Positions 16,558-56,163 of a DNA stretch of 64,000 nucleotides are shown here, one piece after another. The position numbers and the translations under genes are program-made. Below the pieces are notes generated by a model. The model worked only from the letters and a program-made list of their open reading frames with translations, ran no database searches and was not told the DNA's origin. Source of the DNA: a virus; IMG/VR virus record IMGVR_UViG_3300002920_000044, positions 19,344 to 83,343 of that record; one strand, 5' to 3'. Every line of letters begins with the position of its first letter. The first letter of the stretch is position 1.

Positions 16558-17316
16558 TTATTCATACAAGTCTAAGACATACTCAATAATTGGATGTCTT
16601 CTAATATCTTTGCAATCAAAATCACAACAGATTAATCCTGGAACTTGTTTTGATTGTAGTTTCTCTTTAAGGTCAAGTAGCCCGTTATCACAATTTTTTC
16701 TATCAGCCTGACGAACATCTCCAGTAATGACAATCTTACTGCCCTCACCAATTCTTGTCATTATCATTTTCATCTGGTTAGGAGTCGCGTTTTGCATTTC
16801 ATCGGCTATTATAAAGGAATTCTTGAAAGTTCTTCCTCTACAAAATGCTAAGGGTGCGATTTCAATGATTTGTTCTTCTACCATCTGATCAATTTCACGA
16901 CTAGAATAGTATTCTCTAAGAACATCAAACAAAGGACGTACCCAGGGTTCCATTTTTTCGTTTAAGTCGCCAGGTAAGAACCCGTGCTTTTCTTCGTCAA
17001 CTGAAACTGCTGGTCTAGTAAGTAAGAGTTTATCATATTCTTTTCTCCTTAATGCTTGAATTGCAGCAAGCATGGCTAGATAGGTCTTTCCAGTACCTGC
17101 AGGGCCGCTTGCTAGAACTATATCAACGTTTGGGTCAGTTAACGCCATGATGTATTTTTCTTGATTTACTGATTGAGGCAAAAGTTGAATAGATTTCTTT
17201 TCTCTTAGTGTTCTATACTGATATTCCTCTTGGTGGCTATCTATTAAGTAGTATACTTTATTGTTGTCGTTACGGGTGTTGCGCTGTTTTGTCGAGCCTG
17301 CTTTTCTTTTGGCCAC
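16558..17316 (-). CDS. phoH: PhoH family ATPase
   Basis: GPAGTGKT, LTRPAV, GFLPGDL.EKMEPW, EIAPLAFCRGRTF, IIADEMQN, TRIGEGSKIVITGD..Q.D and RHPII. Confidence 0.93.
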   Translation of the reverse strand: MAKRKAGSTKQRNTRNDNNKVYYLIDSHQEEYQYRTLREKKSIQLLPQSVNQEKYIMALTDPNVDIVLASGPAGTGKTYLAMLAAIQALRRKEYDKLLLTRPAVSVDEEKHGFLPGDLNEKMEPWVRPLFDVLREYYSSREIDQMVEEQIIEIAPLAFCRGRTFKNSFIIADEMQNATPNQMKMIMTRIGEGSKIVITGDVRQADRKNCDNGLLDLKEKLQSKQVPGLICCDFDCKDIRRHPIIEYVLDLYE

Positions 17317-17478
17317 ATAATTCTCCTAGTTTTAATTGAAGTTGCTAAGTCTTCATGAGTATTTAAAGAGCAGGGTTAAGTAATTTATATGTAAGAGAAA
17401 AAAAACTTCTGATGATAAATATGCTGTTGGACAAAACAAGGTTATCTTGGATATTTAATAACCGAGATAAATAGTTGT

Positions 17479-18045
17479 ATGAAAAACCTAAGAACCGACA
17501 AATTTTTCTCAGATATTAATTTCGACTCTATAGTTGAAACCATTAAGGGTGTATACATGAGCGACGGTGCTATGTCTACACTATTGGATTTTGAAAGATG
17601 TCTGGATGAGGCTGATATTTACGCTTATAAAAACTGGATAATCGGTGAACTAGTAGACGGCCCAGTAATCGGGCGCTATAGCTGTAAATGCACATTTATG
17701 TGGCCCTACAAGCTTATGCCTGATCCTAGAGCTATTTCTAGGCTCACTATAATTGGATGTAAAGTTGCTATTTCTAAGGGCAAGATCAAGGTCCCAGTAG
17801 ATATAAAATCTACTGATGATTTTATTCCGGGAACTCACTACCCCAAACTAGTGCCAAAAAAAGTTTGGTATGTAGAGATCGAAATTCCTTTTGAGTTAAT
17901 GGATGATATTAAACAAGGATCAATTGAACTTGCTGATCAGACTATTGACCTGTCTGAAATTCAAGATGCATATGATGAAGATTTGGATACAGCAATGTCT
18001 GACAAAAACAGTGTTGATACTATGACAGACCGAGCATTAGGTTAA
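17479..18045 (+). CDS. Hypothetical phage protein
   Basis: 188 aa ORF after the late motif at 17467. Confidence 0.6.
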   Translation: MKNLRTDKFFSDINFDSIVETIKGVYMSDGAMSTLLDFERCLDEADIYAYKNWIIGELVDGPVIGRYSCKCTFMWPYKLMPDPRAISRLTIIGCKVAISKGKIKVPVDIKSTDDFIPGTHYPKLVPKKVWYVEIEIPFELMDDIKQGSIELADQTIDLSEIQDAYDEDLDTAMSDKNSVDTMTDRALG

Positions 18046-18647: not shown

Positions 18648-19478
18648 ATGGATTATTACAACATACTAGGCGTTGAAAAAACTGCCACCCCAGACGAAAT
18701 TAAAAAAGCTTACAGAAAGCTTGCAATGCAATACCATCCCGACAAAGGGGGGGATCCTGAACAGTTCCAAGCTATTAACGAAGCCTATGAAACCTTAAAA
18801 GATGCAAACAAGCGCGCCCAATATGACAGATATGGAAATATCTCGTCACAAAACTTTAGATACCAACAGCAGGCTTATTCTGTACAAGACATAGATGATT
18901 TGAATGATATATTCAATCATTTTTTTGGCAGAAACTTTGAACAAACATTCAGAAATTCTGGAATTAATTCTAGGCAAATAATGCGTACTACTGTGGGGGT
19001 TTCTTTGCGCGAAGCTTATACCGGCGCAGAGAAGATAATTCAACTACGCACAATGACAGAGAACAGGACTATAAGTATTAAGGTAGCACCTGGTATTAAA
19101 ACTGGCGACCAAGTTAGATATGACAATGTAATTGAGGGAATAATTTTAATAGTTAGCTTTCATGTCATGGATGATTTGAAGTTTACCAGAAACGGGCACG
19201 ATTTGTATTGTAACTTGCCTATCTCTGTGTTAGATTTAATTGTTGGAAAGACAATTAAATTTACCTCTATTGATGATAAGGAAATTGAAGTTACTATCCC
19301 TCCCTATATGCAGCCAACAAAGACTATCAGAATACCGGGAAAAGGTATGCCAGTTTATGGTAATCCCGGTATATATGGCGATCAATATTTAGTATTAAAG
19401 CCCTTTGTTCCTGTAGAATTACCTAAATTCCTAATTGACGCGATACAAGAATTTACCTCATCTAATAAGGATAATTAA
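18648..19478 (+). CDS. dnaJ: DnaJ/CbpA-type co-chaperone (J domain plus C-terminal domain, no zinc finger)
   Basis: MDYYNILGV...[19 protein letters not shown]...[10 protein letters not shown]; C-terminal [16 protein letters not shown]...IRIPGKGMP. Confidence 0.9.
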
Positions 19479-39436: not shown

Positions 39437-42145
39437 ATGTCATACGTTGATGCTATTTATGATTCTAGCAAAGAAAGAATCTATGTAGTAGAAAGAACCC
39501 CTGATGGTAAGAGAGAATACAAGGAATATCCAGTAAACTACGTATTTTACTATCCTGATCATAAGGGTAAGTATCGTAGTATTTACGGAGACAAACTTTC
39601 TCGCTTTTCTACTAGGAAAAAGCAAGATTTTGAAAAGGAAAAACGCATTCACGTAGGCAAAAAGCTGTATGAAAGCGATATCAACCCTGTGTTCAGGTGT
39701 TTAAGTGATAACTACTTAGATGTAGAACCCCCAAGACTTCATACATGCTTCTTTGACATTGAAGCGGACTTTGACCTCGAGAGGGGTTATGCTCCCACTG
39801 ACGATCCATTCAATCGTGTTACTGCGATAACTCTATACCTAGACTGGCTTGACCAAATTATAACACTGGCTCTTCCCCCTAGTTCAATGACTATGGAGAC
39901 TGCCAACGACCTTACTAAAGAGTTTGAAAATTGTCTACTCTTTGAGAGTGAGGTTGAAATGTTTGAAATGTTCTTTGCATTAATTGAAGATGCGGATGTT
40001 ATCACAGGCTGGAACAGTGAGGTATATGATATTCCTTACTGTGTCAATCGTGTTACCCGAATAATGAGTAAGGATGACACAAGAAAGTTCTGTTTACTTG
40101 ACCAGCTTCCCAGGATGCGCAAGTATGAACGTTTTGGTAAGGAAGAAACTACATACGACTTAGTAGGTCGAATTCATATGGACTATCTACAATTATACAA
40201 GAAATACAACTACGAAAGCAGACATAGTTATAGCTTAGATTATATTGGTGAAATGGAAGTAGATGAAAAGAAGACTCCATATGAAGGAAGCCTTCATCAG
40301 CTTTACAACCAAGACTTCAAGAAGTTTATTGAATATAATCGCCAAGATACCATGCTTATGGTTAAAATTCACAATAAGTTAAAGTTCCTAGACTTGGCTA
40401 ATGCTCTGGCTCATGAAAATACAGTTCTATTACCTACGGTTATGGGTTCAGTGGCTATGATTGAAATGGCTATTTACAACGAGGCCCATGCACGGGGGTT
40501 TGTTGTTCCTGATAAGAATAGAAGTGCAGAAGAAGAGCAACCAGCAGCTGGTGCTTACGTAGCAACCCCAATAAAAGGAATACACGAATGGGTAGGTGCA
40601 GTTGACATTAACTCACTATATCCATCTACGATCAGAGCATTGAACATGGCCCCTGAAACAATTATTGGTCAGGTTAGGCAAACCCTCACAGACAAATACA
40701 TTCAGGAAAAGGCTGTTAAGTTGGCCAAGAACAAGCGTAAGAAACGTAATAGTGATGACATAGATGTAGTGACCGGCGCAATTCTTTGGGAAGGGTTGTT
40801 TGGTTCGTTAGAATATACCGCCATTATGAACCAAGAACGAGGCACAATTCTCACTATTGACTATGAGGACGGCACAAGTGAAGAAAAGAGTGCGGCTGAA
40901 ATTTGGAAAATGATATTTGATAGCAACAACCCTTGGATGTTGTCTGCTAATGGCACAATCTTTACATATGAAAAAGAGGGAGTAATTCCCGGTTTGTTGA
41001 GTAGGTGGTATACAGAACGTAAGAGTATCCAGAAACAAGCAAAGGAAGCTTATGGAACTGGTATGTATGAATACTATGATAAGCGGCAACTTGTTAGAAA
41101 AATTCTTCTTAACTCAGCGTATGGCGCTCTTTTGAATGCCCACTGTAGATATTATGATAGACGTATTGGGCAGAGTGTTACGTTGACAGGTAGACAAATT
41201 GTAAAGCATATGATGAGTCAAATTAATGAAATCATTACTGATCAATATCAACATGACGGTGATGCTATTATTTATGGAGATACTGACAGTTGTTACTTTA
41301 CAATTTATCCAATGATAAAAGAACAAGTTGAAAAGGGCGAAATAAACTGGTCTAAAGAAGCCTGCATCAAACTCTATGACAATATTGCAGATGAAGTTAA
41401 TGACTCTTTCCCAGCGTTTATGGAACGTGCATTTCACTGTCCAAGAAAAAATGGGGCAATTATTAAGGCTGGAAGAGAACTAATCGGTGATCGTGCGCTG
41501 TTCATTGCCAAGAAACGTTACGCTATCAATATCTTCGATCATGAAGGAAAGCGTCAAGACATTGGTAAGTCTGGTAAGATTAAAGCTATGGGATTGGATC
41601 TCAAGAGAGCAGATACTCCCAAGTATGTTCAGAACTTCTTGATGGAAGTTCTTGGTATGACACTAGCTGGTCATGAAAGGGATGAGATTGTTGAGAAAAT
41701 TAGAAACTTCAAAAAATGGCTAAGCGAACAAGACAGTTGGACAAAAGGCTCTCCAAAAAGTGTCAACAAGCTTACTTATTATCATGAACAAGAAATTAAG
41801 AGCAAAACTGGTAAGGCAAATATGCCTGGCCATGTTAGAGGAGCATTGAACTACAACTATTTACGAAAAATGAATGGAGACAATTACAGCCAAAAAATTG
41901 TTGATGGTATGAAGGTTGTTGTATGTTCATTAAAGCCAAACCCTCTTGGATTTACAAGTATAGCCTACCCAACTGACGAACTAAGACTGCCCGAGTGGTT
42001 CAAAAAACTTCCGTTTGATGATGTCGATATGGAAGAAAAGCTAGTTGATAAAAAGATTGACAATTTGCTTGGTGTGCTTAACTGGCAGATTAATGAAGAT
42101 ATCATGACTAATAGTTCGGTCAACGACTTATTCAGTTTCGGATAA
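39437..42145 (+). CDS. Family B DNA polymerase (T4 gp43-like) with 3'-5' exonuclease
   Basis: FFDIEAD, GWNSEVYDIPY, YNRQD, DINSLYPS, KILLNSAYG, YGDTDS, KKRY and KAMGLDLKRADTP. Confidence 0.96.
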   Translation: MSYVDAIYDSSKERIYVVERTPDGKREYKEYPVNYVFYYPDHKGKYRSIYGDKLSRFSTRKKQDFEKEKRIHVGKKLYESDINPVFRCLSDNYLDVEPPRLHTCFFDIEADFDLERGYAPTDDPFNRVTAITLYLDWLDQIITLALPPSSMTMETANDLTKEFENCLLFESEVEMFEMFFALIEDADVITGWNSEVYDIPYCVNRVTRIMSKDDTRKFCLLDQLPRMRKYERFGKEETTYDLVGRIHMDYLQLYKKYNYESRHSYSLDYIGEMEVDEKKTPYEGSLHQLYNQDFKKFIEYNRQDTMLMVKIHNKLKFLDLANALAHENTVLLPTVMGSVAMIEMAIYNEAHARGFVVPDKNRSAEEEQPAAGAYVATPIKGIHEWVGAVDINSLYPSTIRALNMAPETIIGQVRQTLTDKYIQEKAVKLAKNKRKKRNSDDIDVVTGAILWEGLFGSLEYTAIMNQERGTILTIDYEDGTSEEKSAAEIWKMIFDSNNPWMLSANGTIFTYEKEGVIPGLLSRWYTERKSIQKQAKEAYGTGMYEYYDKRQLVRKILLNSAYGALLNAHCRYYDRRIGQSVTLTGRQIVKHMMSQINEIITDQYQHDGDAIIYGDTDSCYFTIYPMIKEQVEKGEINWSKEACIKLYDNIADEVNDSFPAFMERAFHCPRKNGAIIKAGRELIGDRALFIAKKRYAINIFDHEGKRQDIGKSGKIKAMGLDLKRADTPKYVQNFLMEVLGMTLAGHERDEIVEKIRNFKKWLSEQDSWTKGSPKSVNKLTYYHEQEIKSKTGKANMPGHVRGALNYNYLRKMNGDNYSQKIVDGMKVVVCSLKPNPLGFTSIAYPTDELRLPEWFKKLPFDDVDMEEKLVDKKIDNLLGVLNWQINEDIMTNSSVNDLFSFG

Positions 42146-42223: not shown

Positions 42224-42955
42224 ATGAAAGATCACTTATTAGATTTGATACAATACACACATGGCTTGGGCGTAATTGACCTTGTAAAGATTGAAGGAAC
42301 TTTAACTGAGACTAATATATCTGCATATTCTGACGACAAAAGCGTAATAGTGCAGGGTAGGTTCAATGAGGCAATTACTGATTTTGAGGGCACTTTTGGT
42401 ATGCCTAACTTGGCAAAGCTCAGGACAATTGTCAATTTTGATGATTATGATGATAATAGTATAATCACAGTTGTGAAGGAACAGCGAGATGGACAGGATG
42501 TTCCCGCAGCTATTCACTTTGAAACATCAGCTAAGGATTTTATCAATGACTATCGCTTAATGTCTAAAGCAGTGGTTCAAGATAAAGTAAAGAAGGTTTC
42601 CTTTAAGGGAGCAAATTGGAATGTAGAATTTGAGCCAACTATCCCTGGAATTATGCGTCTGAAAAAGCAGGCTCAGGCTAATAGCGAAGAAGATACCTTT
42701 AAGGTCAAGACCGACGGCACAGACTTGAAGGTATATTTTGGTGATCATTCAACACACTCTGGAAACTTTGTTTTTCAAACTAATATCAACGGTACATTGA
42801 CTAAGCCCTGGAAGTGGCCCGTAAAAGTATTCTTGGCTATAATGGACCTTCCTGGTAAAAAGACTGTTCGTTTCAGTGACGATGGAGCAGCCGAAATTGT
42901 AGTTGAGAGTGGTTTTGCAACTTATACTTATCTACTACCGGCGCTTACAAAATGA
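42224..42955 (+). CDS. Sliding clamp (T4 gp45-like)
   Basis: 243 aa, alternating beta/alpha pattern, C-terminal YTYLLPA, directly downstream of PolB; cognate clamp loader present at 15304. Confidence 0.65.
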   Translation: MKDHLLDLIQYTHGLGVIDLVKIEGTLTETNISAYSDDKSVIVQGRFNEAITDFEGTFGMPNLAKLRTIVNFDDYDDNSIITVVKEQRDGQDVPAAIHFETSAKDFINDYRLMSKAVVQDKVKKVSFKGANWNVEFEPTIPGIMRLKKQAQANSEEDTFKVKTDGTDLKVYFGDHSTHSGNFVFQTNINGTLTKPWKWPVKVFLAIMDLPGKKTVRFSDDGAAEIVVESGFATYTYLLPALTK

Positions 42956-44789: not shown

Positions 44790-45194
44790 ATGGATAATAC
44801 AAACAGAAACATAAGTAATTGTAAAAGAATGATTTGGGTCACTTTTCAGAAAGAAGGAATACATAAATATCCCGAAGCCATTAATGATCCTTTAATAGCC
44901 ACCGGTGATGAATATGACGTTAGTTTTTTGGGTTACCCACATCGTCATATATTTCATTTCAAAGTAGCTATCCAAGTAGATCACTCTAACAGAGATATAG
45001 AATTTATACAATTTAAACGGTGGTTGGAAAATCTTTATGGCAACAAAATATTAAACCTGGATTTTAAGTCATGTGAGATGATAGCAGAAGATTTATATAG
45101 AATTATTTCTACCAAATATCCTAATAGAGAAATTCAAATATCAGTTAGTGAAGACGGTGAAAATGGTGCTGAGCTAACCTTTACTCTACCATAA
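44790..45194 (+). CDS. QueD/PTPS-like T-fold paralogue (candidate DpdL-type)
   Basis: GIHKYP...YPHRHIFHFKV...RDIEFIQFKRWL...SCEMIAEDL...VSVSEDGENG; has the HxH metal motif but lacks the QueD CxxxHG motif. Confidence 0.65.
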   Translation: MDNTNRNISNCKRMIWVTFQKEGIHKYPEAINDPLIATGDEYDVSFLGYPHRHIFHFKVAIQVDHSNRDIEFIQFKRWLENLYGNKILNLDFKSCEMIAEDLYRIISTKYPNREIQISVSEDGENGAELTFTLP

Positions 45195-45271
45195 AGATGT
45201 TCTATAATAATAGAAAACTTGACCCTTTTAATTAAAATCAAATAATATTAACACATTATGGAGAAAATAAA

Positions 45272-45487
45272 ATGTCAACCGACAAAACAGTAGCACAGAT
45301 TTTTGATGACCTAGATAATCTACGTAAATTTTGTGTAGAATTTGGTTATAAATTCAATGAAAAGGATTTGTATGATAAGAAGTCATATATCTTCAAGCAA
45401 TTTCAGAAATTCCAAACTGGAAAAAAGGTCAAGAATCAGTGGGACATTGACAAAGCCAACTTCAAAGCCAAGCAGTTAGGTATTTAA
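45272..45487 (+). CDS. Small hypothetical protein in the modification cluster
   Basis: 71 aa, GGAG RBS, between the QueD paralogue and a glycosyltransferase. Confidence 0.6.
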   Translation: MSTDKTVAQIFDDLDNLRKFCVEFGYKFNEKDLYDKKSYIFKQFQKFQTGKKVKNQWDIDKANFKAKQLGI

Positions 45488-45488
45488 T

Positions 45489-46670
45489 ATGAGAACGTTG
45501 TTTTATTGCCAACTTGAACCGTATAATTCTCGGTACACTCTTCAACTTACAGAATGGAATCGTAGGGTCTTTGAACGTAGAAATATCAATGTAGTATATG
45601 TTCCGGGCGAAACTCTTGATTCTAGTCAACAGATTAGTGTTGGACAGGTTCTTGATGCTCATGGCAGGTCATACTTTGCTATGAGTCAAATAATGAACTT
45701 GGTAAAGATGATGCGCGAGGGCAAGGTTACTTCTGAGGATGTGATTTTCTTTGAAGATATGTTTCATCCAGGTTTTGAATCCTTACCTTACATTATTAAC
45801 CAAATACCTGAAACAATGCGTCCTAGAATCTATGTACGCTGTCTGGCACAAACCATTGACCCTGATGATTTTATTCATGTATGGAACATGGATCGTTGGA
45901 TGCGACAGTATGAAAAAATGGTTTGTTCCAGTGTAACGGCTATTTTAGCTAGCAATGAAGAAATGGTAGCTAATATGAAGGTTGCTGGTTGGGACGTTCC
46001 CATTTATAATGTAAGTGGTCTTGCGTTCAACATTGATGAGGTTCTTGAGCGAGTTGATAACTACGTAGTTCCCTTTTCTTCTAGAAGGATGAGAGTAGTA
46101 TTTGGTGCAAGATGGGATCAAGAAAAGCAACCTGATTTCTATATGGATTTGATTGAAGCCTGGAACGAAAAGTTCCCAAGCAAAGAAGTTGAGTTTGTGT
46201 TGTGCAGCGGCAGCAAACTCAAGTCTAATAATAGTTCATATATGGAGAGAACACGGTGTATGGCAGAAAGCGGCAAGCTTATCATTTATGATAACCTACA
46301 GAAAAACCAGTACTATGAAATCTTAAATAATTCCAGAGTATTATTTAACTGTGCATTACAGGACTGGACTAGTAATACAGTAAGTGAAGCAGACGCTTTG
46401 GGTTGTAACGTCCTATTTCCGGCATATCGTTCCTTCCCTGAAATATTCGCTAATGACTACGAAAGAATGTATATACCTTGGTCTATAGATGACGCCATCA
46501 ATAAGCTTGACAATCTTTTAAAGAAGCCCCATAAGAACATGGGCAAAATTAGTAATTGGACAAATGGCACTGTTGACCGTATTTGTGATATTCTTGAGGG
46601 AAACGGCGAACAATGGCGAAGAAATACTACTGATTATCGCAAACACATAAGAGAGTATAAATATCAATGA
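45489..46670 (+). CDS. GT-B fold glycosyltransferase
   Basis: VFGARWDQEKQP...LFNCALQDWTSNTVSEADALGCNVLFPAYRSFPE resembles the GT4 nucleotide-sugar-binding E-x7-E region. Confidence 0.7.
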   Translation: MRTLFYCQLEPYNSRYTLQLTEWNRRVFERRNINVVYVPGETLDSSQQISVGQVLDAHGRSYFAMSQIMNLVKMMREGKVTSEDVIFFEDMFHPGFESLPYIINQIPETMRPRIYVRCLAQTIDPDDFIHVWNMDRWMRQYEKMVCSSVTAILASNEEMVANMKVAGWDVPIYNVSGLAFNIDEVLERVDNYVVPFSSRRMRVVFGARWDQEKQPDFYMDLIEAWNEKFPSKEVEFVLCSGSKLKSNNSSYMERTRCMAESGKLIIYDNLQKNQYYEILNNSRVLFNCALQDWTSNTVSEADALGCNVLFPAYRSFPEIFANDYERMYIPWSIDDAINKLDNLLKKPHKNMGKISNWTNGTVDRICDILEGNGEQWRRNTTDYRKHIREYKYQ

Positions 46671-47050
46671 TTACTAGAGAAAACTGGAAAGGCTATGTAG
46701 GTTATCAGCCTGTGTCAAAACCTGATTCACAAAAGGCAATAATCTCATACCTAGATTTTGCTTCTAGTAGCACAAACAGCATGGAATTTCGTATAAATTC
46801 AACCAAAATTCCTGTTGATCAAATTACATTGACAGAGGATGAACTGGTCATAGAAATAAACTCACAGTTAAGAGCTTTTGGCACTGTCAAACTTTCTGAA
46901 GGGCAGTTGAGAGAAAACGAGTTAATTAGAGCAAAGAATAGCTGTGATCAGAAAAACTGCCAGGGTAAGCCAAATATAAACATCAGCAATATCTGGTTTT
47001 ATAAGGGAAAACAAGATATGGATGCTCCTCACATTGTAACCGAGCACTAG
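46667..47050 (+). CDS. Hypothetical protein
   Basis: 127 aa ORF coupled to the GT gene. Confidence 0.5.
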   Translation: MITRENWKGYVGYQPVSKPDSQKAIISYLDFASSSTNSMEFRINSTKIPVDQITLTEDELVIEINSQLRAFGTVKLSEGQLRENELIRAKNSCDQKNCQGKPNINISNIWFYKGKQDMDAPHIVTEH

Positions 47051-47195
47051 AACAAGTTTTATCTATTCAAACATCCAAAGTTTGGTAATTACAGATTCAT
47101 AATAGAAAATGAAACAATATAAGTCAGAGATAATTATTACTGGAGAAACAGATGAATTTTGAGATTCTGTTTCAGATAAGTGTTAGAGAGAAGCA

Positions 47196-48257
47196 ATGAA
47201 GGTTGAAGCAGTTACTAAGTTAGACTTTGGCAATGTTCTTATAAAACCCAGATACTCTACTTTAAAGAGCAGAAAAGACGTTAATTTGAATGTAACTTAT
47301 ACTTTCAAGCACTCAGGAATAACTTGGACAGGCATCCCCATTATAGCAGCAAATATGGACGGTGTGGGGACTGTTGAAATGGCAATAGCCCTTCAAAAAA
47401 TGAATATGCTTACTGCATTAGTAAAAACCACCCAAGAAATACCAATAGAGCTTAACCATAACAATTATGTCATAAGTACTGGAATTAATAAGAACGACTA
47501 CGAAAGACTTAAAGTTTTAATGTCCTCTGCAACAGAACATAGATTTATCTGTATTGATGTTGCTAATGGCTATAGTCAGAATTTTCTCAATTATATTTCT
47601 AAGGTAAGAGAAAAATATAAGACTTTAGTTACTATCATGGCAGGTAACGTAGTCACGCCAGAAATGGCACAGATGGTTATTAATGCTGGAGCTGATATTG
47701 TTAAGATAGGTATTGGTTCGGGGGCGGTATGCACAACTCGTATTCAAACAGGCATAGGATACCCCCAACTTTCGGCTATAATAGAATGTAGAGAAGCAGT
47801 GCACCAACTTAGTGCTCATATCATATCAGACGGCGGTTGTACCTGCCCGGGTGATGTAGCTAAGGCGTTTGGTGCAGGCGCTGATTTCGTTATGCTTGGA
47901 TCGTTGTTCGCAGGGCACAATGAGGGCGGGGGAGAAATAATTTCAAAATCTTTCCGAACAAACCATTATGTAAAGGGAGTACAGCAATGGAACAACGAAG
48001 ATTATGTACAATTTTACGGTATGAGCAGCGAGACAGCTATGAAGAAGCATCACGGGGGCGTAGAAGATTATCGTAGTAGTGAGGGCAGAACAATAGAAGT
48101 TAAGTATAAAGGTCCGGTAGAAAATACAGTTAAAGATTTGCTCGGTGGAATTCGTAGTAGCTGTACTTACGTAGGAGCCAAAAATCTATCAGAGTTGTAT
48201 GATAAGACTACATTTATTAAAGTGAATAAACAATTTAATGAGTTATTTGTCAAATAA
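47196..48257 (+). CDS. guaC: GMP reductase
   Basis: KPRYSTLKSRKDV, PIIAANMDGVG, CIDVANGYS, GIGSGAVCTTR..TGIGYPQLSA, DGGCTCPGDVAKAFG, FYGMSS and YRSSEG. Confidence 0.93.
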   Translation: MKVEAVTKLDFGNVLIKPRYSTLKSRKDVNLNVTYTFKHSGITWTGIPIIAANMDGVGTVEMAIALQKMNMLTALVKTTQEIPIELNHNNYVISTGINKNDYERLKVLMSSATEHRFICIDVANGYSQNFLNYISKVREKYKTLVTIMAGNVVTPEMAQMVINAGADIVKIGIGSGAVCTTRIQTGIGYPQLSAIIECREAVHQLSAHIISDGGCTCPGDVAKAFGAGADFVMLGSLFAGHNEGGGEIISKSFRTNHYVKGVQQWNNEDYVQFYGMSSETAMKKHHGGVEDYRSSEGRTIEVKYKGPVENTVKDLLGGIRSSCTYVGAKNLSELYDKTTFIKVNKQFNELFVK

Positions 48258-48268
48258 AGGAAACTATT

Positions 48269-48538
48269 ATGATGACTATCGACGAAGTATTTGAAGAAAT
48301 AAAAAGAGAAAGAGCATACCAAGAAAACAAGTGGGGCAATTTTGAGCAACATCCTCAGTCTTTGCCCGGGTATCTTTTGATTATGAAAAAAGAATTAGAA
48401 GAGGCCGAAGACGGCTGGATGAAAAACTCAACAGGCAGAAACCATGTATTACACGAAATTTTGCAAGTAGCTACTGTTGCAATTGCCTGCTTAGAGGAAC
48501 ATGGAAATAAAAGTTATTTGGGAAACAGCGATAAATAA
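48269..48538 (+). CDS. MazG-like all-alpha NTP pyrophosphatase
   Basis: ERAYQENKWG...KELEEA...HEILQVATVAIACLE (ExxE...ExxQ pattern). Confidence 0.5.
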   Translation: MMTIDEVFEEIKRERAYQENKWGNFEQHPQSLPGYLLIMKKELEEAEDGWMKNSTGRNHVLHEILQVATVAIACLEEHGNKSYLGNSDK

Positions 48539-48539
48539 A

Positions 48540-48610
48540 GATGTAGCACAAAGGCTACATCCTGAGAGAAATCTCCGTTGAGCGTAAACGTTAGACGCTA
48601 CGAAAGGAAA
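48540..48610 (+). ncRNA. Candidate structured 5' leader of folE
   Basis: 8 bp stem gatgtagc/gctacatc, GAGA-GAAA-TCTC GNRA hairpin and agcgt/acgct stem, packed into about 70 nt before the AAGGA RBS. Confidence 0.5.
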
Positions 48611-48615
48611 CAACA

Positions 48616-49290
48616 ATGAGTTACAATAGAGTTAAAACTGATCCAGAGTTGGGCCAAAGAGTTCATAATTATTTGGTTAAAATGGGTGTTGAAACCCCTG
48701 TCATAGAAAATAATCTAAGCAGAACTACTAAAATTGAAATCATCCAACAAAAATTTGCAGACATTATGGAAACACTGGGCTTGGATCTAAGTGACGATAG
48801 CTTAGCTGACACTCCTAAGCGTGTGGCCAAGATGTATGTGGGTGAGATTTTTTGGGGATTAGATTATGATGCATTCCCCAAGTGTACCACTGTAGATAAC
48901 AAGATGCATTATGATGAAATGGTAATTGAACGCAACATAATTGTTATGAGTAACTGTGAACACCACTTTATTACCATCGATGGGCTAGCAACAGTAGCAT
49001 ACGTTCCAGACAAGAAGGTTCTTGGCTTGTCAAAGATTAACAGAATAGTAGAATATTTTGCAAAAAGACCTCAGATACAGGAACGTTTGACCGAGCAGAT
49101 ATTCCATGCATTGTGTTATATTCTAGAAACTGATAATGTTGCAGTTATGATTGACGCTAAGCATTATTGCGTAGCTAGCAGGGGCGTAGAAGATACTGGT
49201 TCTAGGACTATCACTAGCAAGTTAGGCGGTGGATTTAAGTCTGACCCGGCAGCTAGAGCAGAGTTCTTGAGCATAGCCAAGCAGCGTTAA
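48616..49290 (+). CDS. folE: GTP cyclohydrolase I
   Basis: TPKRVAKMY, SNCEHH, GLSKINRIV..FAKRPQIQERLT and HYCVASRGV. Confidence 0.95.
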   Translation: MSYNRVKTDPELGQRVHNYLVKMGVETPVIENNLSRTTKIEIIQQKFADIMETLGLDLSDDSLADTPKRVAKMYVGEIFWGLDYDAFPKCTTVDNKMHYDEMVIERNIIVMSNCEHHFITIDGLATVAYVPDKKVLGLSKINRIVEYFAKRPQIQERLTEQIFHALCYILETDNVAVMIDAKHYCVASRGVEDTGSRTITSKLGGGFKSDPAARAEFLSIAKQR

Positions 49291-49546
49291 TCTTGGCTTT
49301 TTCAATTTCACCTTGTTATTATTTTTTATGCTTAGAAAGATATTCTGACAAAATGATATATTGACTAACCTGTCTTCAAGATGCCCAAAAAATATTGAAT
49401 TGGATAAAGTAACGTGATAATATAAAATGGGAAAACTAGTAGTAAAGATAAGCTTAATATTGATTTGAGTTGTTGTTTTTTATTTCATGATTTAGAAGAT
49501 GTGTAGTAATTAATCTTAAATTTTAATCTTAAATTAAAGAAGGATA

Positions 49547-49888
49547 TTGAATATGGGAAAGTTTTTTAGTTTTTACGGATTAGCTCAGCGTAGTGAATAC
49601 TGGGCTGTTATGTTAATCTTAATTGTATCTAGTTTCTTTTTAGGTTTCGGCGTTGGCGGGTTATTACTCTCTGACAACACGATAATTTTAGGATTGATAC
49701 TACTCTTGATACTAACAGTTATCTCAGGTTGGGTAATACTGGCAACTACCGCCCGTCGTTGTCGTGACGCAGGCATCAGTCCTTACTGGTGTCTAGCATT
49801 GTTAGTTCCTTATGTTAGCCTCGTTGCCACGATAGTGTTCGGCGTAATCCCTACTAATACTATACAGCATACACAGGATTTTGAATGA
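49547..49888 (+). CDS. DUF805-family membrane protein
   Basis: FSFYG...RSEYW, hydrophobic helices, ARRCRDAGISPYW (compare RRLHD.G.SGW). Confidence 0.7.
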   Translation: MNMGKFFSFYGLAQRSEYWAVMLILIVSSFFLGFGVGGLLLSDNTIILGLILLLILTVISGWVILATTARRCRDAGISPYWCLALLVPYVSLVATIVFGVIPTNTIQHTQDFE

Positions 49889-50100
49889 ACTATGAACTTG
49901 ACTTACACGGAGTAAAGCACCAAGATGCTGACCGAGAAGTAGAGAATTTTGTTTATATTAATCAGCAAAATTTTCCTATCAGGATAATTTGCGGTAATAG
50001 CCATAAAATGGTTGGTATCACACAGTCAGCACTTGAAAGAATTGGTTGTGAATATACAATGTATAGGTATGGTGTAATTACAGTAAGTAAATTTAAATGA
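49885..50100 (+). CDS. Smr-like domain protein
   Basis: LDLHG...A...VENF...IRIICGNS. Confidence 0.6.
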   Translation: MNYELDLHGVKHQDADREVENFVYINQQNFPIRIICGNSHKMVGITQSALERIGCEYTMYRYGVITVSKFK

Positions 50101-50786
50101 CTAAAGAAATCAAATCCAACAGGTCTACAGCAGTAGTTCAAAAAAGAATTGAACCTAAGACAGGTCTTGACGATTTCCCTACTCCTCCTTGGGCTACTAG
50201 GGCGTTATGCGAGTGGCTATTATCGAAAAATATTGCCATTAACACAATGACTGTTAGAGAGCCGGCCGCAAATAGGGGCCATATGGCAAAGCCCTTATCT
50301 GAATTTTTCAAGACAGTTGAAGGCTCAGATGTTTATGATTACGGGTATGGCTTTTCAGTCAAGAACTTTATAACAGAAGAGGATTTTAGTGAAGTTGATT
50401 TTACTATCACTAATCCTCCCTTTATTTTAGCAAAAGACTTCATAGAAAAAGCTCTTAGAACAAGCAAAGTGGGAGTAGCAGTTATTGTTAGGCTTGCTTT
50501 TATTGAGGGTAAAGACCGATATAATTCTTTGTTCAAAGAAAACCCTCCCACATACCTTTTACAACATGTAGAACGTGTAGGAATATGTAAGGGTACAATC
50601 AAGAAAGACGTAGCCGCAGCAACAGCTTATTGTTGGCTAGTGTGGCTAAAAGACCGAAAAAATGAAGAAACCAAGATAAATTGGATTGAACCTTGCAAAG
50701 AACGTCTTGAAAGAGAAGACGACTATCATACAGAAACAGTTTCCCCAGAATTATCAAATTACAGTATTTTGTTTAAAGAAGAATAA
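50097..50786 (+). CDS. DNA N6-adenine methyltransferase-like protein
   Basis: DDFPTPPWAT, REPAANRGHM (motif I variant), ITNPPF (motif IV) and RLAFIEG. Confidence 0.75.
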   Translation: MTKEIKSNRSTAVVQKRIEPKTGLDDFPTPPWATRALCEWLLSKNIAINTMTVREPAANRGHMAKPLSEFFKTVEGSDVYDYGYGFSVKNFITEEDFSEVDFTITNPPFILAKDFIEKALRTSKVGVAVIVRLAFIEGKDRYNSLFKENPPTYLLQHVERVGICKGTIKKDVAAATAYCWLVWLKDRKNEETKINWIEPCKERLEREDDYHTETVSPELSNYSILFKEE

Positions 50787-50841
50787 AAAATGTCTTTATA
50801 TGATACAAATTGTTTGTTATAATTATTCAAAGGATTGATAA

Positions 50842-51339
50842 ATGATAGCAAGAACATATAAATATACATCTACCAAAGAATACCATGATGCTTTCCCTTG
50901 TGCATATAGGCAATGGCGAGCAGATAGTCACTGTAATCTAATACATGGCTATAGTTTCAATTTTAAGTTCTACTTTGGTGCAGATACACTAGACGCTAGA
51001 AATTGGTGCGCAGATTATGGCGGGCTTAGAGATTTGAAAGCAATTCTTGAAGACCAGTTTGATCACACACTCTTAGTAAGTCAGGACGATCCAGAATTAG
51101 AAACCTTCAAGCTTCTCCAAGAAAAGAAAATGGCCAAGCTAACGATAGTTCCTGCAACTGGCTGTGAAGCTATAGCTGATATGCTTTATAGATACGTAAA
51201 CGGTGTTTATATTCCTGATCATTGGGGACAGGGAGAGGCAGATAGGCTTTGGTGTTATAGGGTTGAAGTTCGTGAGACACAAAGTAATATGGCTTTCAGA
51301 GAAGGCCATCGTGAATGGAATGAGTCTTTGTTAGGTTAA
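50842..51339 (+). CDS. queD: 6-carboxytetrahydropterin synthase
   Basis: SHCNLIHGY, DYGGLRDLK..LEDQFDHTLL, GCEAIA and VEVRET. Confidence 0.88.
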   Translation: MIARTYKYTSTKEYHDAFPCAYRQWRADSHCNLIHGYSFNFKFYFGADTLDARNWCADYGGLRDLKAILEDQFDHTLLVSQDDPELETFKLLQEKKMAKLTIVPATGCEAIADMLYRYVNGVYIPDHWGQGEADRLWCYRVEVRETQSNMAFREGHREWNESLLG

Positions 51340-51581
51340 TTTCTGCAATTTTATTAATGTAGAGAAACAACTAAAAAGGTTTTGAAATTTTTCAGTTGAA
51401 TAACTATTCACATAAAAGAACCAACATGAACAATAAACTAGAAAAATTAGACTAGTATTGCAATTAAACTACACTGGGCATTCAGTTTGTCCAGCATAGC
51501 TGAATTAATTGATGTAGTAGAAGAACTTATATGACAAATAAATTGTCCATGAAACGGGGAAGAAAGGTGATAGGGGAAAAT

Positions 51582-52073
51582 ATGCTTAAACAAGTTTTTT
51601 ACACAGATAAAGACATAGACGGAATGGTACATGATATCATTCGTTCTTTGGCCAAAGAAAATTGGAAGCCTGACTATATAGTTGGTATAACTAGGGGTGG
51701 GTTAATTCCTGCTATCTATATTAGTCATTATTGTGACATTAAGATGGAAACATTGAAAGTAAGTATTTTGTCTGACGATTGTGAAAGCAACTGCTGGATG
51801 GCAGAAGATGCATTTAATGGTAAGAACATTCTTATTATTGATGACATAGTTGATAAGGGTAAAACATTTAATTGGATAAAAGAAGATTGGCAATCTATGT
51901 GTTTTCCTGATGACCCAAAGTGGAAAAATATTTGGCACAATAATGTCAAGTTTGCTTCTTTGATTTACAATGAAGCATCTGAATTTCCAGTTGATTTTTA
52001 TTCAGAAAGCATCAATAAAGTAGAGAATCCAGTTTGGATTACCTACCCCTGGGAGAAGTGGTGGCGGGCGTGA
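51582..52073 (+). CDS. Type I purine phosphoribosyltransferase (Gpt/Xpt-like)
   Basis: IVGITRGGLIPA, ILIIDDIVDKGKT (PRPP-binding loop) and WITYPWE; probable ATG at 51582. Confidence 0.85.
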   Translation: MLKQVFYTDKDIDGMVHDIIRSLAKENWKPDYIVGITRGGLIPAIYISHYCDIKMETLKVSILSDDCESNCWMAEDAFNGKNILIIDDIVDKGKTFNWIKEDWQSMCFPDDPKWKNIWHNNVKFASLIYNEASEFPVDFYSESINKVENPVWITYPWEKWWRA

Positions 52074-52245
52074 TATTTCTTGAGGTTAGAAATATCAACC
52101 TTTAGTCTACTCTTAACCCAACCAGAAGAAATTTCCTTAGGTAAGAAACGCTTTTCTTATGTTTCATTTTGTTTCTTGTTAAAATTAGAGTAGTTAGGCT
52201 GTTGTCTTCTGCCTAAATATAAGGTGAAGGTAAAAAGTAAAATAC

Positions 52246-52280
52246 TTTCTCTTTGTATAAATAACACTATACAAGAGAAA
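52246..52280 (+). promoter_or_regulatory. RBS-sequestering hairpin containing a late promoter, upstream of the HNH gene
   Basis: 13 bp stem with one bulge, tttctc(t)ttgtata / tatacaagagaaa; TATAAATA at 52256-52263; ATG at 52283. Confidence 0.7.
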
Positions 52281-52282
52281 TA

Positions 52283-53575
52283 ATGATTAACTTACACTAT
52301 AAAAACAGATACGACAAATTTATTACTTCTATCAAGTCTCAACCAAATAGAGATATTAGCAAAACATATACAGAGTTTCATCATATCCAGCCCAGATGTC
52401 TCAAGGGAAGTGATGATCCTGATAACTTGATTGAGTTAACGTTAAGAGAACATCATTTGGCACATTGGCTATTATGGAAATCATATCCAGACTATTTACC
52501 AATTGCAAGTGCATTTTTGCAAATGAACAACAAGAATTTTAAGAGTAACAAGAAATTCAAGCCTCTTCCAAGCAAAGTGTATGAAACCCTCAAGACAGAG
52601 ACATATAAAATGTTAAGTGAACTCAAGACAGATAAAGTCTATGTAAGAGATAAGGCTGGTAATCTTATAGAAATGTCTAAAAAAGAATATGCTGAACAAG
52701 AAGAGCTAAAATTTCATACTACAGGAAAGCTCGTAGTATTTGACCGTGAGGATAATATATACAAGTCTATTACTACAATAGAATACTATTCTAATAAGCA
52801 TCGCTATGTTACTAACGTAGGAGCGGGAGTAGGAGAAATCAATCCTGAAAAATGCAGATATAAATTTAAGGACATAGAAACAGGTAATATAGTCAAAATA
52901 ACAAAAAAAGACGCAAGAATATACAATAAGCAGGCAGGATACAAGAGATATAAGCAGATAATTAAACAGAAAATACCTGTTATTGATAAAGAAGGTAATA
53001 AATCACTTGTTGAGGTAGACCAATATTATAAAGGAAATTATAAACATTATAATTCAGAAACCGTTACCGTCTATGATAAACACTTACAGCGTAATAGGTC
53101 TATTACAAGAGAAGAATACTACACTGATCCAAATAGGTATGACACTTCTACTAAAGGAAAAGTAGTGGCAAAAAATTCAGTTGGAGAAACTGTTTTGGTA
53201 GATAAGGAAGATTTTGCTTCTGGTAAGTATGTAGGTCATACAAAAGGGCTAAGAACCATGTATGATGTTGATACTGGCAAATATAAACAGATAACAGAAA
53301 AAGAATGGTTGAACAATAAAAACAGATATACAGGCCCAAACAAGGGTAAAATTAATGTTATCAACAAACACACTGGTGTAAGAGAGCAAATTGACAAAAA
53401 AGACTTTGATTCGTCTGTTTATCTTAGTTTAGGTGCACATTCATACTTGTTTAGGGCAAGAAATAAGTTGACTAATAAAGAGAAAAACATTAATATATAT
53501 GAATGGGACTTAGTAAAAAATCAGTATGATATTATTGACATAGAGCAATTTAATAATGCGATGAAGAAAAAATAA
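52283..53575 (+). mobile_element. Free-standing HNH homing endonuclease (Mob-like) with repeated C-terminal DNA-binding modules
   Basis: EFHHIQPRCLKGSDDPDNLIELTLREHHLAHWLLWK, then about 8 repeats like KG.V.V.D..G....I...EY.....Y. Confidence 0.85.
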
Positions 53576-53590
53576 AAGAAAGGTAAATCA

Positions 53591-54469
53591 ATGGCTAATG
53601 GTAATTCGAACCTTATTAAGGTATCGGAACTTTTTTTTTTTTTTTCAATCCAGGGTGAAGGCCGATATATGGGCGTCCCCAGCATTTTTCTAAGAACCTT
53701 TGGTTGTAATTTTAAATGTTTAGGATTCGGGATGCCTAAAGGACAACTGAGTGATGAAGTTGATAAGATCAATCCAGCAGAATATAATTCATATGACCAG
53801 CTTCCTCTCGTTAGTACTGGATGTGACTCGTATGCCGCGCATAATCCTCGCTTTAAGCATCTTTCTCCCAGCAGGGACATTGATACTCTTGTTAGTGATA
53901 TTATGGAATTGTTACCGTTCAAAGAATGGCGAGACGAACACCTCGTTATTACGGGAGGAGAACCACTCTTAGGTTGGCAAAGAGCATATCCTAACTTGTT
54001 AAATCACAATAATATGCATGGACTAAAAGAGTTGACCTTTGAAACTAACGGTACTCAACCCCTACGCAAAGACTTTGCTGAATATCTTACAACATGGGTA
54101 GCGACCGGCGCAGATAATTTTAATATTGAAAGAGAAGTTACCTTCAGCGTAAGTCCCAAACTATCTGTGAGTGGTGAGCTAAGGCAGAATGCCATCAAGC
54201 CTCATGTCGTGGCAGAATACGAGAAGATCGGGTATACCTATCTTAAGTTTGTTATCGCAACAGAAGAAGATGCCAACGAAGCACTTGAGGTAACAAATCT
54301 TTATCGTCAAGCAGGTGTTAAGGGTCCAGTTTATTTCATGCCCGTGGGCGGCGTCGAGGAAGTCTATAACCTTAACAGTCAAAATGTAGCAGAGCTTGCT
54401 ATGAAATATGGCGTTAGGTATAGTGACAGACTGCATATTCCTCTATGGGGCAATCAGTGGGGAACCTGA
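53591..54469 (+). CDS. queE: 7-carboxy-7-deazaguanine synthase (radical SAM)
   Basis: SIQGEG..G.PSIFLRTFGCNFKC...CDS, VITGGEPLL, ETNGT and SVSPK; T15 run near the 5' end. Confidence 0.9.
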   Translation: MANGNSNLIKVSELFFFFSIQGEGRYMGVPSIFLRTFGCNFKCLGFGMPKGQLSDEVDKINPAEYNSYDQLPLVSTGCDSYAAHNPRFKHLSPSRDIDTLVSDIMELLPFKEWRDEHLVITGGEPLLGWQRAYPNLLNHNNMHGLKELTFETNGTQPLRKDFAEYLTTWVATGADNFNIEREVTFSVSPKLSVSGELRQNAIKPHVVAEYEKIGYTYLKFVIATEEDANEALEVTNLYRQAGVKGPVYFMPVGGVEEVYNLNSQNVAELAMKYGVRYSDRLHIPLWGNQWGT

Positions 54470-54472
54470 TAA

Positions 54473-55336
54473 ATGAACCTTGAAAGAATGTATGTTATAT
54501 CCTGGTTCGGTGACGACGAAGTTCGCCAAAAAAGAATTGATTATCATAACAAGCAAATAGACTGGGCTATAAAAAATGGCCTCTCTGTATATGTATTAGC
54601 GCAAGGTTATACGACCCGAGATTATCGTGAGGATGTTACTTACATAGAGTATTCTTCGGAAAAACTGCTTTTACCTGCCGAAGCCAGAAATTATTTGTTG
54701 AGACATTTTTACGCTAGTGATTGCGACTATGCAATTATAGCAGATAACGATAGTGTGTTACATGAAGGCGAACAACACTGTGACAGCAGGGACTTTGTTT
54801 CACTATTCAATACTATCCCATTATCAAGTCTCAGTGAGGTTGATTTCTTTTTTCCATTGAATCCTGCAAAAATTCCTTTCAATAAAACATTTATTGAAAA
54901 CAAGGATTTATATGATAACTTTTTGGTGTTCAAGAGAAATGTGGACAGTAAGGGAAGCTTTTGTGTTGTAAAGAACTTCCAGAAGCACTACAATAATCCA
55001 ATTTTCTACGATGAAGTCAGTTTTATGACAGAGGATAGAAAAATTATTACCCACGAAGATGTAGACTTTGGCCTTAATATCATCGCAAATGGGTATGGAT
55101 GCTACATGCTTACCAATATTGTATTGAAGGAATATGCTTCTTCGGCTAGCACATGGGCCAACAATGAGCGCGGAGAAGTAATGCTTCATGGAAAAGAAAT
55201 CATAAAGAACAAGTATAATCTTGTTCAAAACAAACAGGGACATTTGCAATATAAGTCTCTATATCAAAAATCAACGCGACCAAATAAAGTTCTAGTTCCC
55301 AAGCATTCACATCCATTATTTGAGATAGAGCCGTGA
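54473..55336 (+). CDS. Putative GT-A-like glycosyltransferase
   Basis: PAEARNYLL..FY....DYAIIADND (DxD) and HEDVDF; coupled to a sugar epimerase gene. Confidence 0.5.
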   Translation: MNLERMYVISWFGDDEVRQKRIDYHNKQIDWAIKNGLSVYVLAQGYTTRDYREDVTYIEYSSEKLLLPAEARNYLLRHFYASDCDYAIIADNDSVLHEGEQHCDSRDFVSLFNTIPLSSLSEVDFFFPLNPAKIPFNKTFIENKDLYDNFLVFKRNVDSKGSFCVVKNFQKHYNNPIFYDEVSFMTEDRKIITHEDVDFGLNIIANGYGCYMLTNIVLKEYASSASTWANNERGEVMLHGKEIIKNKYNLVQNKQGHLQYKSLYQKSTRPNKVLVPKHSHPLFEIEP

Positions 55337-56163
55337 AAAAGATATTGGTTACAGGGTGTTCTGGGTATATAGGTTCACATTTATGTGAACTTTTAAAGGA
55401 TAATTACATCGTTTATGGAGTAGATATAGTTGGTCCCCTAAGTGATAGCATAGCACAATTCATTAATTATGACCTTAGAACATTATTTGCCTTCGGGGCG
55501 CAGCCTTATGATGCAGTAGTACATTTGGCGGCATTAGTAAGAGTAGGAGAAAGCGAGCAGAAACCTATACAATATTATTTTACTAATGTCTTAGGCACAG
55601 TTAATGTCCTTGATTTTGTAAAAACAGATCATTTCATATTTGCTAGCACTGGTGCTGCTGAATCTTTAAACAGCCCGTATGCTATTAGTAAAAGAGCGGC
55701 AGAACAGATTATTCAGCAAATTTGCCCAGCATATACTATATTTCGTTTTTATAACGTGATTGGTACTGATGGTTTTCCTCCTACTAACTCTGATGGTTTG
55801 ATGTACAAGCTTATGGAAGCATCTATTACGGGCAAGTTCACTATTTACGGGAATAACTATACAGAAAGTCATGATGGAACGCCTATCAGAGATTATGTCC
55901 ATGTCAACGAGATATGTAACGCCATTGTAGAGGCCATCGAACATGGTCCTACTAACACTATTGAATGTTTGGGGCACGGCAAAGGTTATACTGTTAAGTA
56001 AATAGTTAATATATTTCAAGAAACCAACAACATCAAGTTAGATATTGAGTATGGGCCCAGAAGAAAAGATTATGCTCCCGTAACAGTCCTTAAGGATGTA
56101 TCTAAATTCATGACGCCTCAGTATGATATTATAGATTTGTTGAAGATTGACAATATTTTATAG
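55333..56163 (+). pseudogene. NAD-dependent sugar epimerase (GalE-like SDR) interrupted by one in-frame TAA at 55999-56001
   Basis: VTGCSGYIGSH, HLAA, YAISK, FRFYNVIG and RDYVHV. After the stop the same frame continues IVNIFQETN...YGPRRKD to TAG at 56161-56163, the expected GalE C-terminus. Confidence 0.75.

Follow-up and report, generated by a model that had tools for sequence, protein, structure and literature searches.

A deazaguanine gene cluster with glycosyltransferases

The window analyzed here is a stretch of 64,000 nucleotides (positions 19,344 to 83,343) of the viral record IMGVR_UViG_3300002920_000044, in which genes for 7-deazaguanine synthesis lie interleaved with genes for two glycosyltransferases and a GalE-like epimerase. 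Its source is a 100-kb IMG/VR viral contig that is ~29% complete according to CheckV, so the phage would be an uncultured jumbo phage with a genome of roughly 330 kb. Megablast found no match to the region among GenBank phages. Every gene between 39 and 60 kb of the window lies on the + strand (Table 1). The best explanation of the module is a DpdL-type 7-deazaguanine DNA modification system that has been extended by dedicated glycosyltransferases. Our best reading of its product, in which we place moderate confidence, is a glycosylated 7-deazaguanine in the phage DNA.

A preliminary description of this DNA had pointed to the tight order dpdA, QueD paralogue, 71-amino-acid (aa) open reading frame (ORF), and GT-B glycosyltransferase. 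Order, strand, and spacing are indeed as it gave them: 71 nt separate the 520-aa gene from the QueD paralogue (DpdL), 77 nt lie between DpdL and the 71-aa ORF, and a single nucleotide precedes the GT-B gene. It had also placed a GT-A-like gene just past queE, coupled to a GalE-like gene, and these positions are correct; the gap after the QueE stop is 3 nt, and the GT-A-like and GalE-like genes overlap by 4 nt.

FolE, QueD, and QueE yield 7-carboxy-7-deazaguanine by chemistry known from the queuosine pathway. In the window, FolE matches PF01227 (6e-61) and passes the cut-off of NF006824 with 325 bits, and QueD matches PF01242 (8e-17) and retains the CxxxHGH motif as CNLIHGY. Several NCBIfam QueE models match QueE at 1e-8 to 1e-12, every one under its cut-off, and the protein is 44% identical to the annotated QueE of cyanophage BUCT-ZZ01. 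QueC (PF06508) had no match on the 100-kb contig, and in two 92%-complete relatives, PA5oct, ACP17, and X1 no match exceeded the cut-off. Since QueC is absent, no preQ0 would be made.

The 134-aa protein had been called a QueD paralogue. The paralogy holds, but the label is generic, and the protein can be named more exactly as DpdL. Its LGYPHRHIF fits LxxxHRHxF, the signature that separates DpdL from QueD with its CxxxHGH (Cui, Hutinet et al., NAR 2023, PMC10516641). Identity is 53% to ACP17 gp125 (tblastn, 3e-34) and 35% to phiST CGPG_00067 (tblastn, 1e-9), the pair of DpdL proteins on which Cui et al. worked (PMC10516641). The protein also matches phrog_17812. DpdL is the proposed 7-carboxy-7-deazaguanine decarboxylase, an activity never demonstrated in vitro, and in phiST DNA plain 2′-deoxy-7-deazaguanine (dDG) replaces all G (PMC10516641). 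DpdL also matches the C-terminal ends of longer ORFs in Vibrio phage Bakedbeans (gp176, 383 aa, 8221-9372 in locus L090) and Chryseobacterium phage MA9V-3 (293 aa, 8431-9312 in locus L096), which suggests DpdL fusion proteins.

The 520-aa protein carried the label dpdA, and this label stands in part. No Pfam, NCBIfam, or PHROG family matches the protein, and the Pfam model of tRNA-guanine transglycosylase (TGT) has no match anywhere on the 100-kb contig. When its AlphaFold2 (AF2) model, built on 25 homologues (pLDDT 84), was searched with Foldseek, there were 187 matches at E<=0.001, and at least the 50 best of these are TGTs, with E about 2e-7. GDSGGFQ and FDCASP, which we take to be the two catalytic aspartate motifs of TGT, are invariant across the 25 homologues and align weakly with DSGGLQ and FD of an annotated TGT of phage X1. 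Furthermore, the language-model neighbors of the protein are TGT and DpdA families or clusters, and its homologue in PA5oct adjoins QueE. Searches of PDB sequences, by phmmer with the protein and with a profile of its family, gave nothing meaningful, and there is no detectable sequence similarity to DpdA3 of phiST. Judged by modeled fold and motifs, the features by which it can be recognized, the protein is a very divergent TGT-fold enzyme that is not assignable to a named DpdA subfamily.

Table 1. Genes of the module and its surroundings, in window coordinates
Feature	Position	Strand	Basis or remark
Family-B DNA polymerase (polB)	39437-42145	+	family searches
243-aa protein (p243)	42224-42955	+	between polymerase and DpdA-like gene
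Putative divergent TGT-fold base-exchange enzyme, DpdA-like, 520 aa	43156-44718	+	fold, motifs, context
DpdL (QueD paralogue), 134 aa, T-fold	44790-45194	+	LxxxHRHxF signature, homology
Basic ORF, 71 aa (p71)	45272-45487	+	conserved between DpdL and GT-B
GT4-type GT-B glycosyltransferase, 393 aa, predicted core sugar transferase of the module	45489-46670	+	AF2 model, motifs
127-aa ORF overlapping GT-B stop	46667-47050	+	no family match
GMP reductase, GuaC type, accessory	47196-48257	+	NF003470
GTP cyclohydrolase I (FolE)	48616-49290	+	PF01227, NF006824
229-aa protein	50097-50786		phrog_799 match
QueD (6-carboxytetrahydropterin synthase)	50842-51339	+	PF01242, CxxxHGH
Purine phosphoribosyltransferase (PRT; Gpt/XPRT-like), accessory	51531-52073	+	PF00156
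HNH homing endonuclease, 430 aa	52283-53575	+	phrog_655
QueE (7-carboxy-7-deazaguanine synthase, radical SAM)	53591-54469	+	NCBIfam QueE models, BUCT-ZZ01 identity
GT-A-like (GT2-like) glycosyltransferase, 287 aa	54473-55336	+	ESM Atlas model, DND motif
GalE-like SDR epimerase gene, in-frame TAA 55999-56001	55333-56163	+	PF01370, motifs

The GT-B gene and the second transferase slot

The AF2 model of GT-B, made with 102 diverse homologues, reached a pLDDT of 96.2 and a pTM of 0.93 and has two Rossmann-like domains. Its best solved matches are the retaining GT4 enzymes MshA, BshA, sucrose-phosphate synthase (SPS), PimA, PglA, LmbT, and SenB (Foldseek E about 1e-12, Z 24-27 over about 320-340 residues), and the tetrahydrobiopterin glucosyltransferase BGluT is also found (Z 23.7-24.4). 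A structural comparison with the glucosyltransferases of T4, AGT and BGT, had been proposed. Neither is among the best 50 structural matches listed by Foldseek or VIA, and GT4 enzymes stand there instead. The best 30 rows of a structure search of Swiss-Prot likewise hold generic GT4 enzymes only, with no queuosine mannosyltransferase among them. R208 and K213 never vary across the 102 sequences, and D292 and E300, eight residues apart, hardly do. We take the former to be the GT4 diphosphate-binding pair and the latter an ExxxxxxxE-type motif, an assignment with no superposition behind it. Sequence searches see less of this. The only Pfam match of the window protein, PF13524, scores 19.4 bits and so misses the cut-off of 25, and phmmer against PDB sequences returned nothing meaningful; its X1 homologue passes PF00534 (45.5 bits versus 26.4). 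From the model and the motifs we are confident that GT-B is a real GT4-type enzyme, and it looks active. A complex prediction for the TGT-fold protein and GT-B scored 0.00, which is not evidence either way.

Counted as lower bounds, the GT-B family comprises 7,989 or more clusters at 90% identity and 847 or more at 50%, and it occurs in no fewer than 597 IMG/VR loci. To follow the module through its relatives we searched 82 loci by tblastn, with the 80 nearest IMG/VR loci, PA5oct, and BUCT-ZZ01 among them. The order polB-p243-DpdA-DpdL-p71-GT-B-(GuaC)-FolE-QueD-(PRT)-QueE is retained in the 80 nearest loci. The association extends to distant proteins. One contig whose GT-B is only 31% identical holds DpdL, a 303-aa candidate DpdA, GT-B, QueD, QueE, and FolE together, and on a second contig, again with 31% identity, DpdL overlaps the start of GT-B. 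A second subclade has an SDR gene directly 3′ of GT-B.

Cultured phages gave the same picture. The GT-B profile found exactly one gene per genome in six lineages (PA5oct-like, ACP17, X1/BUDD, BCSR5, Phosso, and cyanophage BUCT-ZZ01), and in each case this gene adjoins DpdL or DpdA; in ACP17 it is gp124, between a DpdA candidate and DpdL. The whole genomes of seven further DpdL lineages (phiST, RHph_I1_18, Bakedbeans, Ahp1, D479, MA9V-3, and Roos) had no match to the profile, while positive controls matched in a parallel search. Because six lineages carry GT-B beside DpdL or DpdA and seven DpdL lineages do without it, GT-B is an optional add-on, found within DpdL-type clusters only. Linkage of GT-B homologues to dpdA was a check that the preliminary description had asked for, and its outcome is that GT-B keeps company with DpdL and DpdA genes in phages that are not related to one another. 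The only GT-free lineage with analyzed DNA is phiST, the one with plain dDG.

Among 185,579 species genomes, GT-B matches occurred in five contigs of metagenome-assembled genomes only. The four that extend far enough have the same phage module, and the fifth ends within GT-B. Those with the whole module from polB to QueE are labeled Haliscomenobacter, Chitinophagales, and Rickettsiales. They are probably phage contigs binned with bacteria, and as a hint to the host these labels are weak at best.

Past QueE, the relatives carry another transferase. A 445-aa second GT-B, with weak to significant PF00534 matches, lies within 0-1.7 kb of QueE in 29 of the 30 relatives with enough sequence there, and a GalE-like gene of 273-290 aa comes after it in 23 of these 29 loci; BUCT-ZZ01 also has the second GT-B. 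None exists in the window or in the rest of its contig. Its exact slot is filled by the GT-A-like protein, which overlaps the start of the epimerase gene. The ESM Atlas model of this protein resembles GT2 clusters (TM 0.61-0.69 over 217-238 residues), and a DxD-type motif is present as DND in IIADNDS; there was no Pfam match, and phmmer against PDB sequences gave nothing meaningful. The family is small, with only 16 other clusters, and a pattern scan of IMG/VR found no relatives. In the three homologue contexts that could be read (50-58% identity), the neighbors are early genes for RNA ligase, PNKP, dCMP deaminase, and Nudix. The preliminary description had treated the GT-A as part of the module, and as a conserved member it does not hold up. 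Since the homologues elsewhere stand outside deazaguanine clusters, its place in the pathway rests on its position in this one genome. It looks like one transferase has been replaced by an unrelated one. Some relatives have a class I S-adenosylmethionine methyltransferase (PF08242, 1e-20) between QueE and the second GT-B (17184-17960 in locus L040), possibly another tailoring step.

The GalE-like gene matches PF01370 (1.5e-32), has both GxxGxxG and YxxxK, and scores 117 bits against TIGR01179, whose cut-off is 262. Its product is, by these motifs, an extended-SDR nucleotide-sugar enzyme and a candidate epimerase. The gene, a GalE-like epimerase in the preliminary description, is interrupted in frame by a TAA at codon 223 (55999-56001). 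In 22 of 23 orthologues this position is Glu (GAA or GAG), and in one it is CAA. Homology runs on past the TAA to 56160, for 53 more codons, and the frame, read through the stop, aligns over 284 residues and at 58% identity with an intact orthologue of 283 aa. Either a nonsense mutation or an error in the assembly accounts for the TAA.

Proposed pathway and its alternatives

A pathway that fits these genes would start from GTP, which FolE, QueD, and QueE would convert to 7-carboxy-7-deazaguanine, and DpdL would turn this into 7-deazaguanine. The 520-aa TGT-fold enzyme, as its fold, motifs, and context suggest, would then swap guanine in DNA for the deazaguanine base. The GT4-type GT-B would move a sugar from a nucleotide sugar onto the deazaguanine, either in DNA or as the free base, a step suggested by gene linkage. 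A second transferase, here the GT-A and in nearly all relatives the second GT-B, would add or vary a further sugar, and the donor would come from the GalE-like epimerase, interrupted in this genome. PRT and GuaC would be accessory, with a plausible role in recycling the guanine that base exchange sets free. The preliminary description had named the 7-substituent of the deazaguanine as the nearest acceptor. This clashes with DpdL, which is proposed to remove the 7-carboxyl, and with the plain dDG of phiST DNA (PMC10516641). Because the carboxyl is removed, the sugar would sit on N2, O6, or a ring carbon.

Extending this to other phages, we propose tentatively that in an abundant environmental jumbo-phage clade and in cultured phages, PA5oct and ACP17 among them, DNA guanine is replaced by 7-deazaguanine with one or two sugars, in N- or C-glycosidic linkage since DpdL removes the only oxygen handle. 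An exchange of the second transferase between phages would be as expected from an arms race with modification-dependent nucleases.

Several observations weigh against a glycosylated base in DNA. The link from GT to base comes from gene neighborhood, and we infer from that linkage that the sugar is on a DNA base. 7-Deazaguanine has no hydroxyl to glycosylate; an unusual N- or C-glycosylation would therefore be required. The closest solved structures of GT-B take small molecules, not DNA. Members of the GT-B family are acidic (median pI 5.8), few basic residues are conserved among them, and the N-terminal domain is acidic, although we judge overall charge to be uninformative on the type of acceptor because the DpdA-like protein is acidic too. 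No deazaguanine genes lie near the GT-A homologues in the three contexts read, and the GalE-like frame has its stop.

Glycosylation by phage GT-B enzymes has a clear precedent in the alpha-GT and beta-GT of T4, which put the sugar of a UDP-sugar on a modified DNA base. In T2 and T6, a second transferase can add a second sugar. The acceptor of the T4 enzymes is 5-hydroxymethylcytosine, which depends on a hydroxymethylase of the ThyA family; for the window, none was found. For sugars on deazaguanines, tRNA provides mannosyl- and galactosyl-queuosine, which are made by one GT-B and one GT-A enzyme. The acceptor there is a hydroxyl of the cyclopentenediol, which the predicted base of the window lacks. 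A sugar on a 7-deazaguanine derivative has a further precedent in HuiG, which transfers GlcNAc onto the 2-amino group of a free 7-deazapurine base (bioRxiv 10.64898/2026.04.15.718813). In neither case is the product DNA; HuiG leads to a secondary metabolite, and the queuosine transferases modify a tRNA nucleoside.

HuiG also lends itself to another view of GT-B. The enzyme is GT4-type and works at N2 of the free base in huimycin biosynthesis (bioRxiv 10.64898/2026.04.15.718813), and the best structural matches of the window's GT-B include BshA, MshA, LmbT, and SenB, all with small acceptors, with BGluT close behind. GT-B might then act on a small-molecule intermediate such as a pterin or a free deazapurine, with the sugar transient, protecting, or regulatory, or it might make a soluble metabolite, and the DNA would carry plain dDG. 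The acidic N-terminal domain would suit such an acceptor. We consider this unlikely. A transient sugar offers the phage no obvious gain, phiST-type phages make dDG without such a GT (PMC10516641), and the second GT and the epimerase look like decoration of an end product. If the TGT-fold enzyme inserts a glycosylated free base, this explanation merges with that of a sugar-bearing base in DNA. A route at the nucleotide level, as for tubercidin, is less probable still. PRT would load carboxy-deazaguanine on PRPP, DpdL would decarboxylate the product, GuaC may deaminate, a polymerase would incorporate the nucleotide, and the transferases would act on nucleotides or DNA. Save for the decarboxylase family, the enzyme types of the tubercidin cluster are all in the window, namely PRT (PF00156), GMP reductase (PF00478), FolE, QueD, and QueE, with no QueC (bioRxiv 10.64898/2026.04.15.718813), and the module adjoins a DNA polymerase. 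Set against this, only 29 of the 82 loci have PRT and only 29 have GuaC, so that neither is core, and GuaC is a canonical enterobacterial-type GMP reductase (NF003470, 470 bits versus a cut-off of 397). A TGT-fold enzyme with conserved catalytic motifs, on the other hand, is present in every related locus that reaches its position, which points to base exchange.

Just as improbable, in our view, is that the transferases have nothing to do with deazaguanine and merely sit in the replication region, acting on a hydroxymethylated pyrimidine, on proteins, or on sugars of the host envelope. The GT-A family does occur elsewhere near the RNA ligase, PNKP, dCMP deaminase, and Nudix genes and without deazaguanine genes, and a hydroxymethylase could lie elsewhere in the genome, as the contig is only about 29% of it. 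The GT-B neighborhood, though, is retained down to 22-31% identity across lineages that share little else. Furthermore, the preliminary description had seen no hydroxymethylase in the window, and this extends to the entire contig, which has no ThyA-family gene. Nor is there one in the complete GT-B-bearing genomes of BUCT-ZZ01, X1, and ACP17. Each of the two 92%-complete relatives has a single ThyA-family gene, which scores above the equivalog cut-off for thymidylate synthase, and in both PA5oct and Phosso there is one strong match to ThyA. A hydroxymethylase or TET gene elsewhere had been offered as an alternative source of acceptors. The three ThyA-free genomes argue against the hydroxymethylase, while the search for TET/JBP families returned no match, controls included, and hence is uninformative. 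We found no pyrimidine hydroxymethylase or other pyrimidine acceptor pathway in the genomes searched. As for an oxygenase that would make a hydroxyl handle, the compact modules of relatives (L059 and L037) leave no room for one.

The glycosylated 7-deazaguanine that we favor can be set beside two characterized phages. The phiST dDG system (PMC10516641) shares with the window FolE, QueD, and QueE without QueC, a DpdL with LxxxHRHxF, a divergent enzyme of the TGT family that is putative in the window, and nearby replication genes. It differs in having no GT-B genome-wide, a short 259-aa DpdA3, and a MazG-like gene, whereas the window has two glycosyltransferases, an epimerase, PRT, and GuaC in addition. 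The Pseudomonas jumbo phage PA5oct (Wroclawvirus) has much of the same locus: polB, p243, a homologue of the 520-aa protein (32%), GT-B (E about 2e-41), DpdL (60%), PRT, and QueE. Unlike the window, it has no second GT or epimerase in the locus, and its GT-B comes directly after the DpdA-like gene. Restriction mapping indicated a modified G in PA5oct, without chemical identification (PMC12191111), and a glycosylated deazaguanine may explain it. ACP17 offers a similar case. With its DpdA and DpdL alone, reconstitution of dDG failed, and the authors suggested that unknown enzymes may be needed (PMC10516641). Glycosylation may explain this failure, and gp124, the GT-B that lies between these two genes in ACP17, is an obvious candidate for the missing enzyme.

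To our knowledge, all described DNA glycosylations are on hydroxymethyl pyrimidines, and the eight described deazaguanine DNA bases all have small 7-substituents or none. A literature search on deazaguanine and glycosylation turned up no description of DNA with a glycosylated deazaguanine, in agreement with the preliminary description, which had called such a base undescribed. If true, no other purine in DNA would so far be known to bear a sugar. Attached to a deazapurine, the sugar would amount to a new DNA chemistry that could protect against restriction and CRISPR in a new way, and it would present a new target to type IV nucleases and DNA glycosylases. Because the GT-B family is very large, one would expect the base to be widespread in environmental viromes, where it could bias the sequencing of such phages. 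The present locus contributes a GT-A in the slot of the second GT-B, an epimerase gene with an interrupted frame, and the accessory GuaC and PRT.

Accessory, inserted, and small genes

The two accessory purine genes differ in how well they can be named. GuaC was identified by its family model, and inside the module it may drain or recycle the guanine pool. PRT matches PF00156 (3.7e-10), its nearest NCBIfam model is xanthine PRT, under cut-off, and the loci that carry it include PA5oct and BUCT-ZZ01. The HNH homing endonuclease (phrog_655, 2e-27) is inserted between PRT and QueE. Its homologues occur in only 3 related loci, at other positions; it is mobile and stands outside the pathway.

Pfam scans of the cluster ORFs gave no match to UbiD. 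Small ORFs separate FolE from QueD, and a UvdE gene comes after the GalE-like gene. For the ORFs of 127, 89, and 229 aa, neither the ESM Atlas nor Pfam had a match. The 127-aa ORF has no family match and no tblastn match in the related loci. The 229-aa protein, without a Pfam match or a homologue in related loci, matches the middle of phrog_799 (“DNA methyltransferase,” 2e-49). The 71-aa ORF was found in 75 of the 82 loci; its product has a pI of 9.4 and only a weak DUF7615 match. The 243-aa protein is conserved as far as PA5oct, where its homologue (6930-7676 in locus L002) is annotated as a structural protein detected by mass spectrometry.

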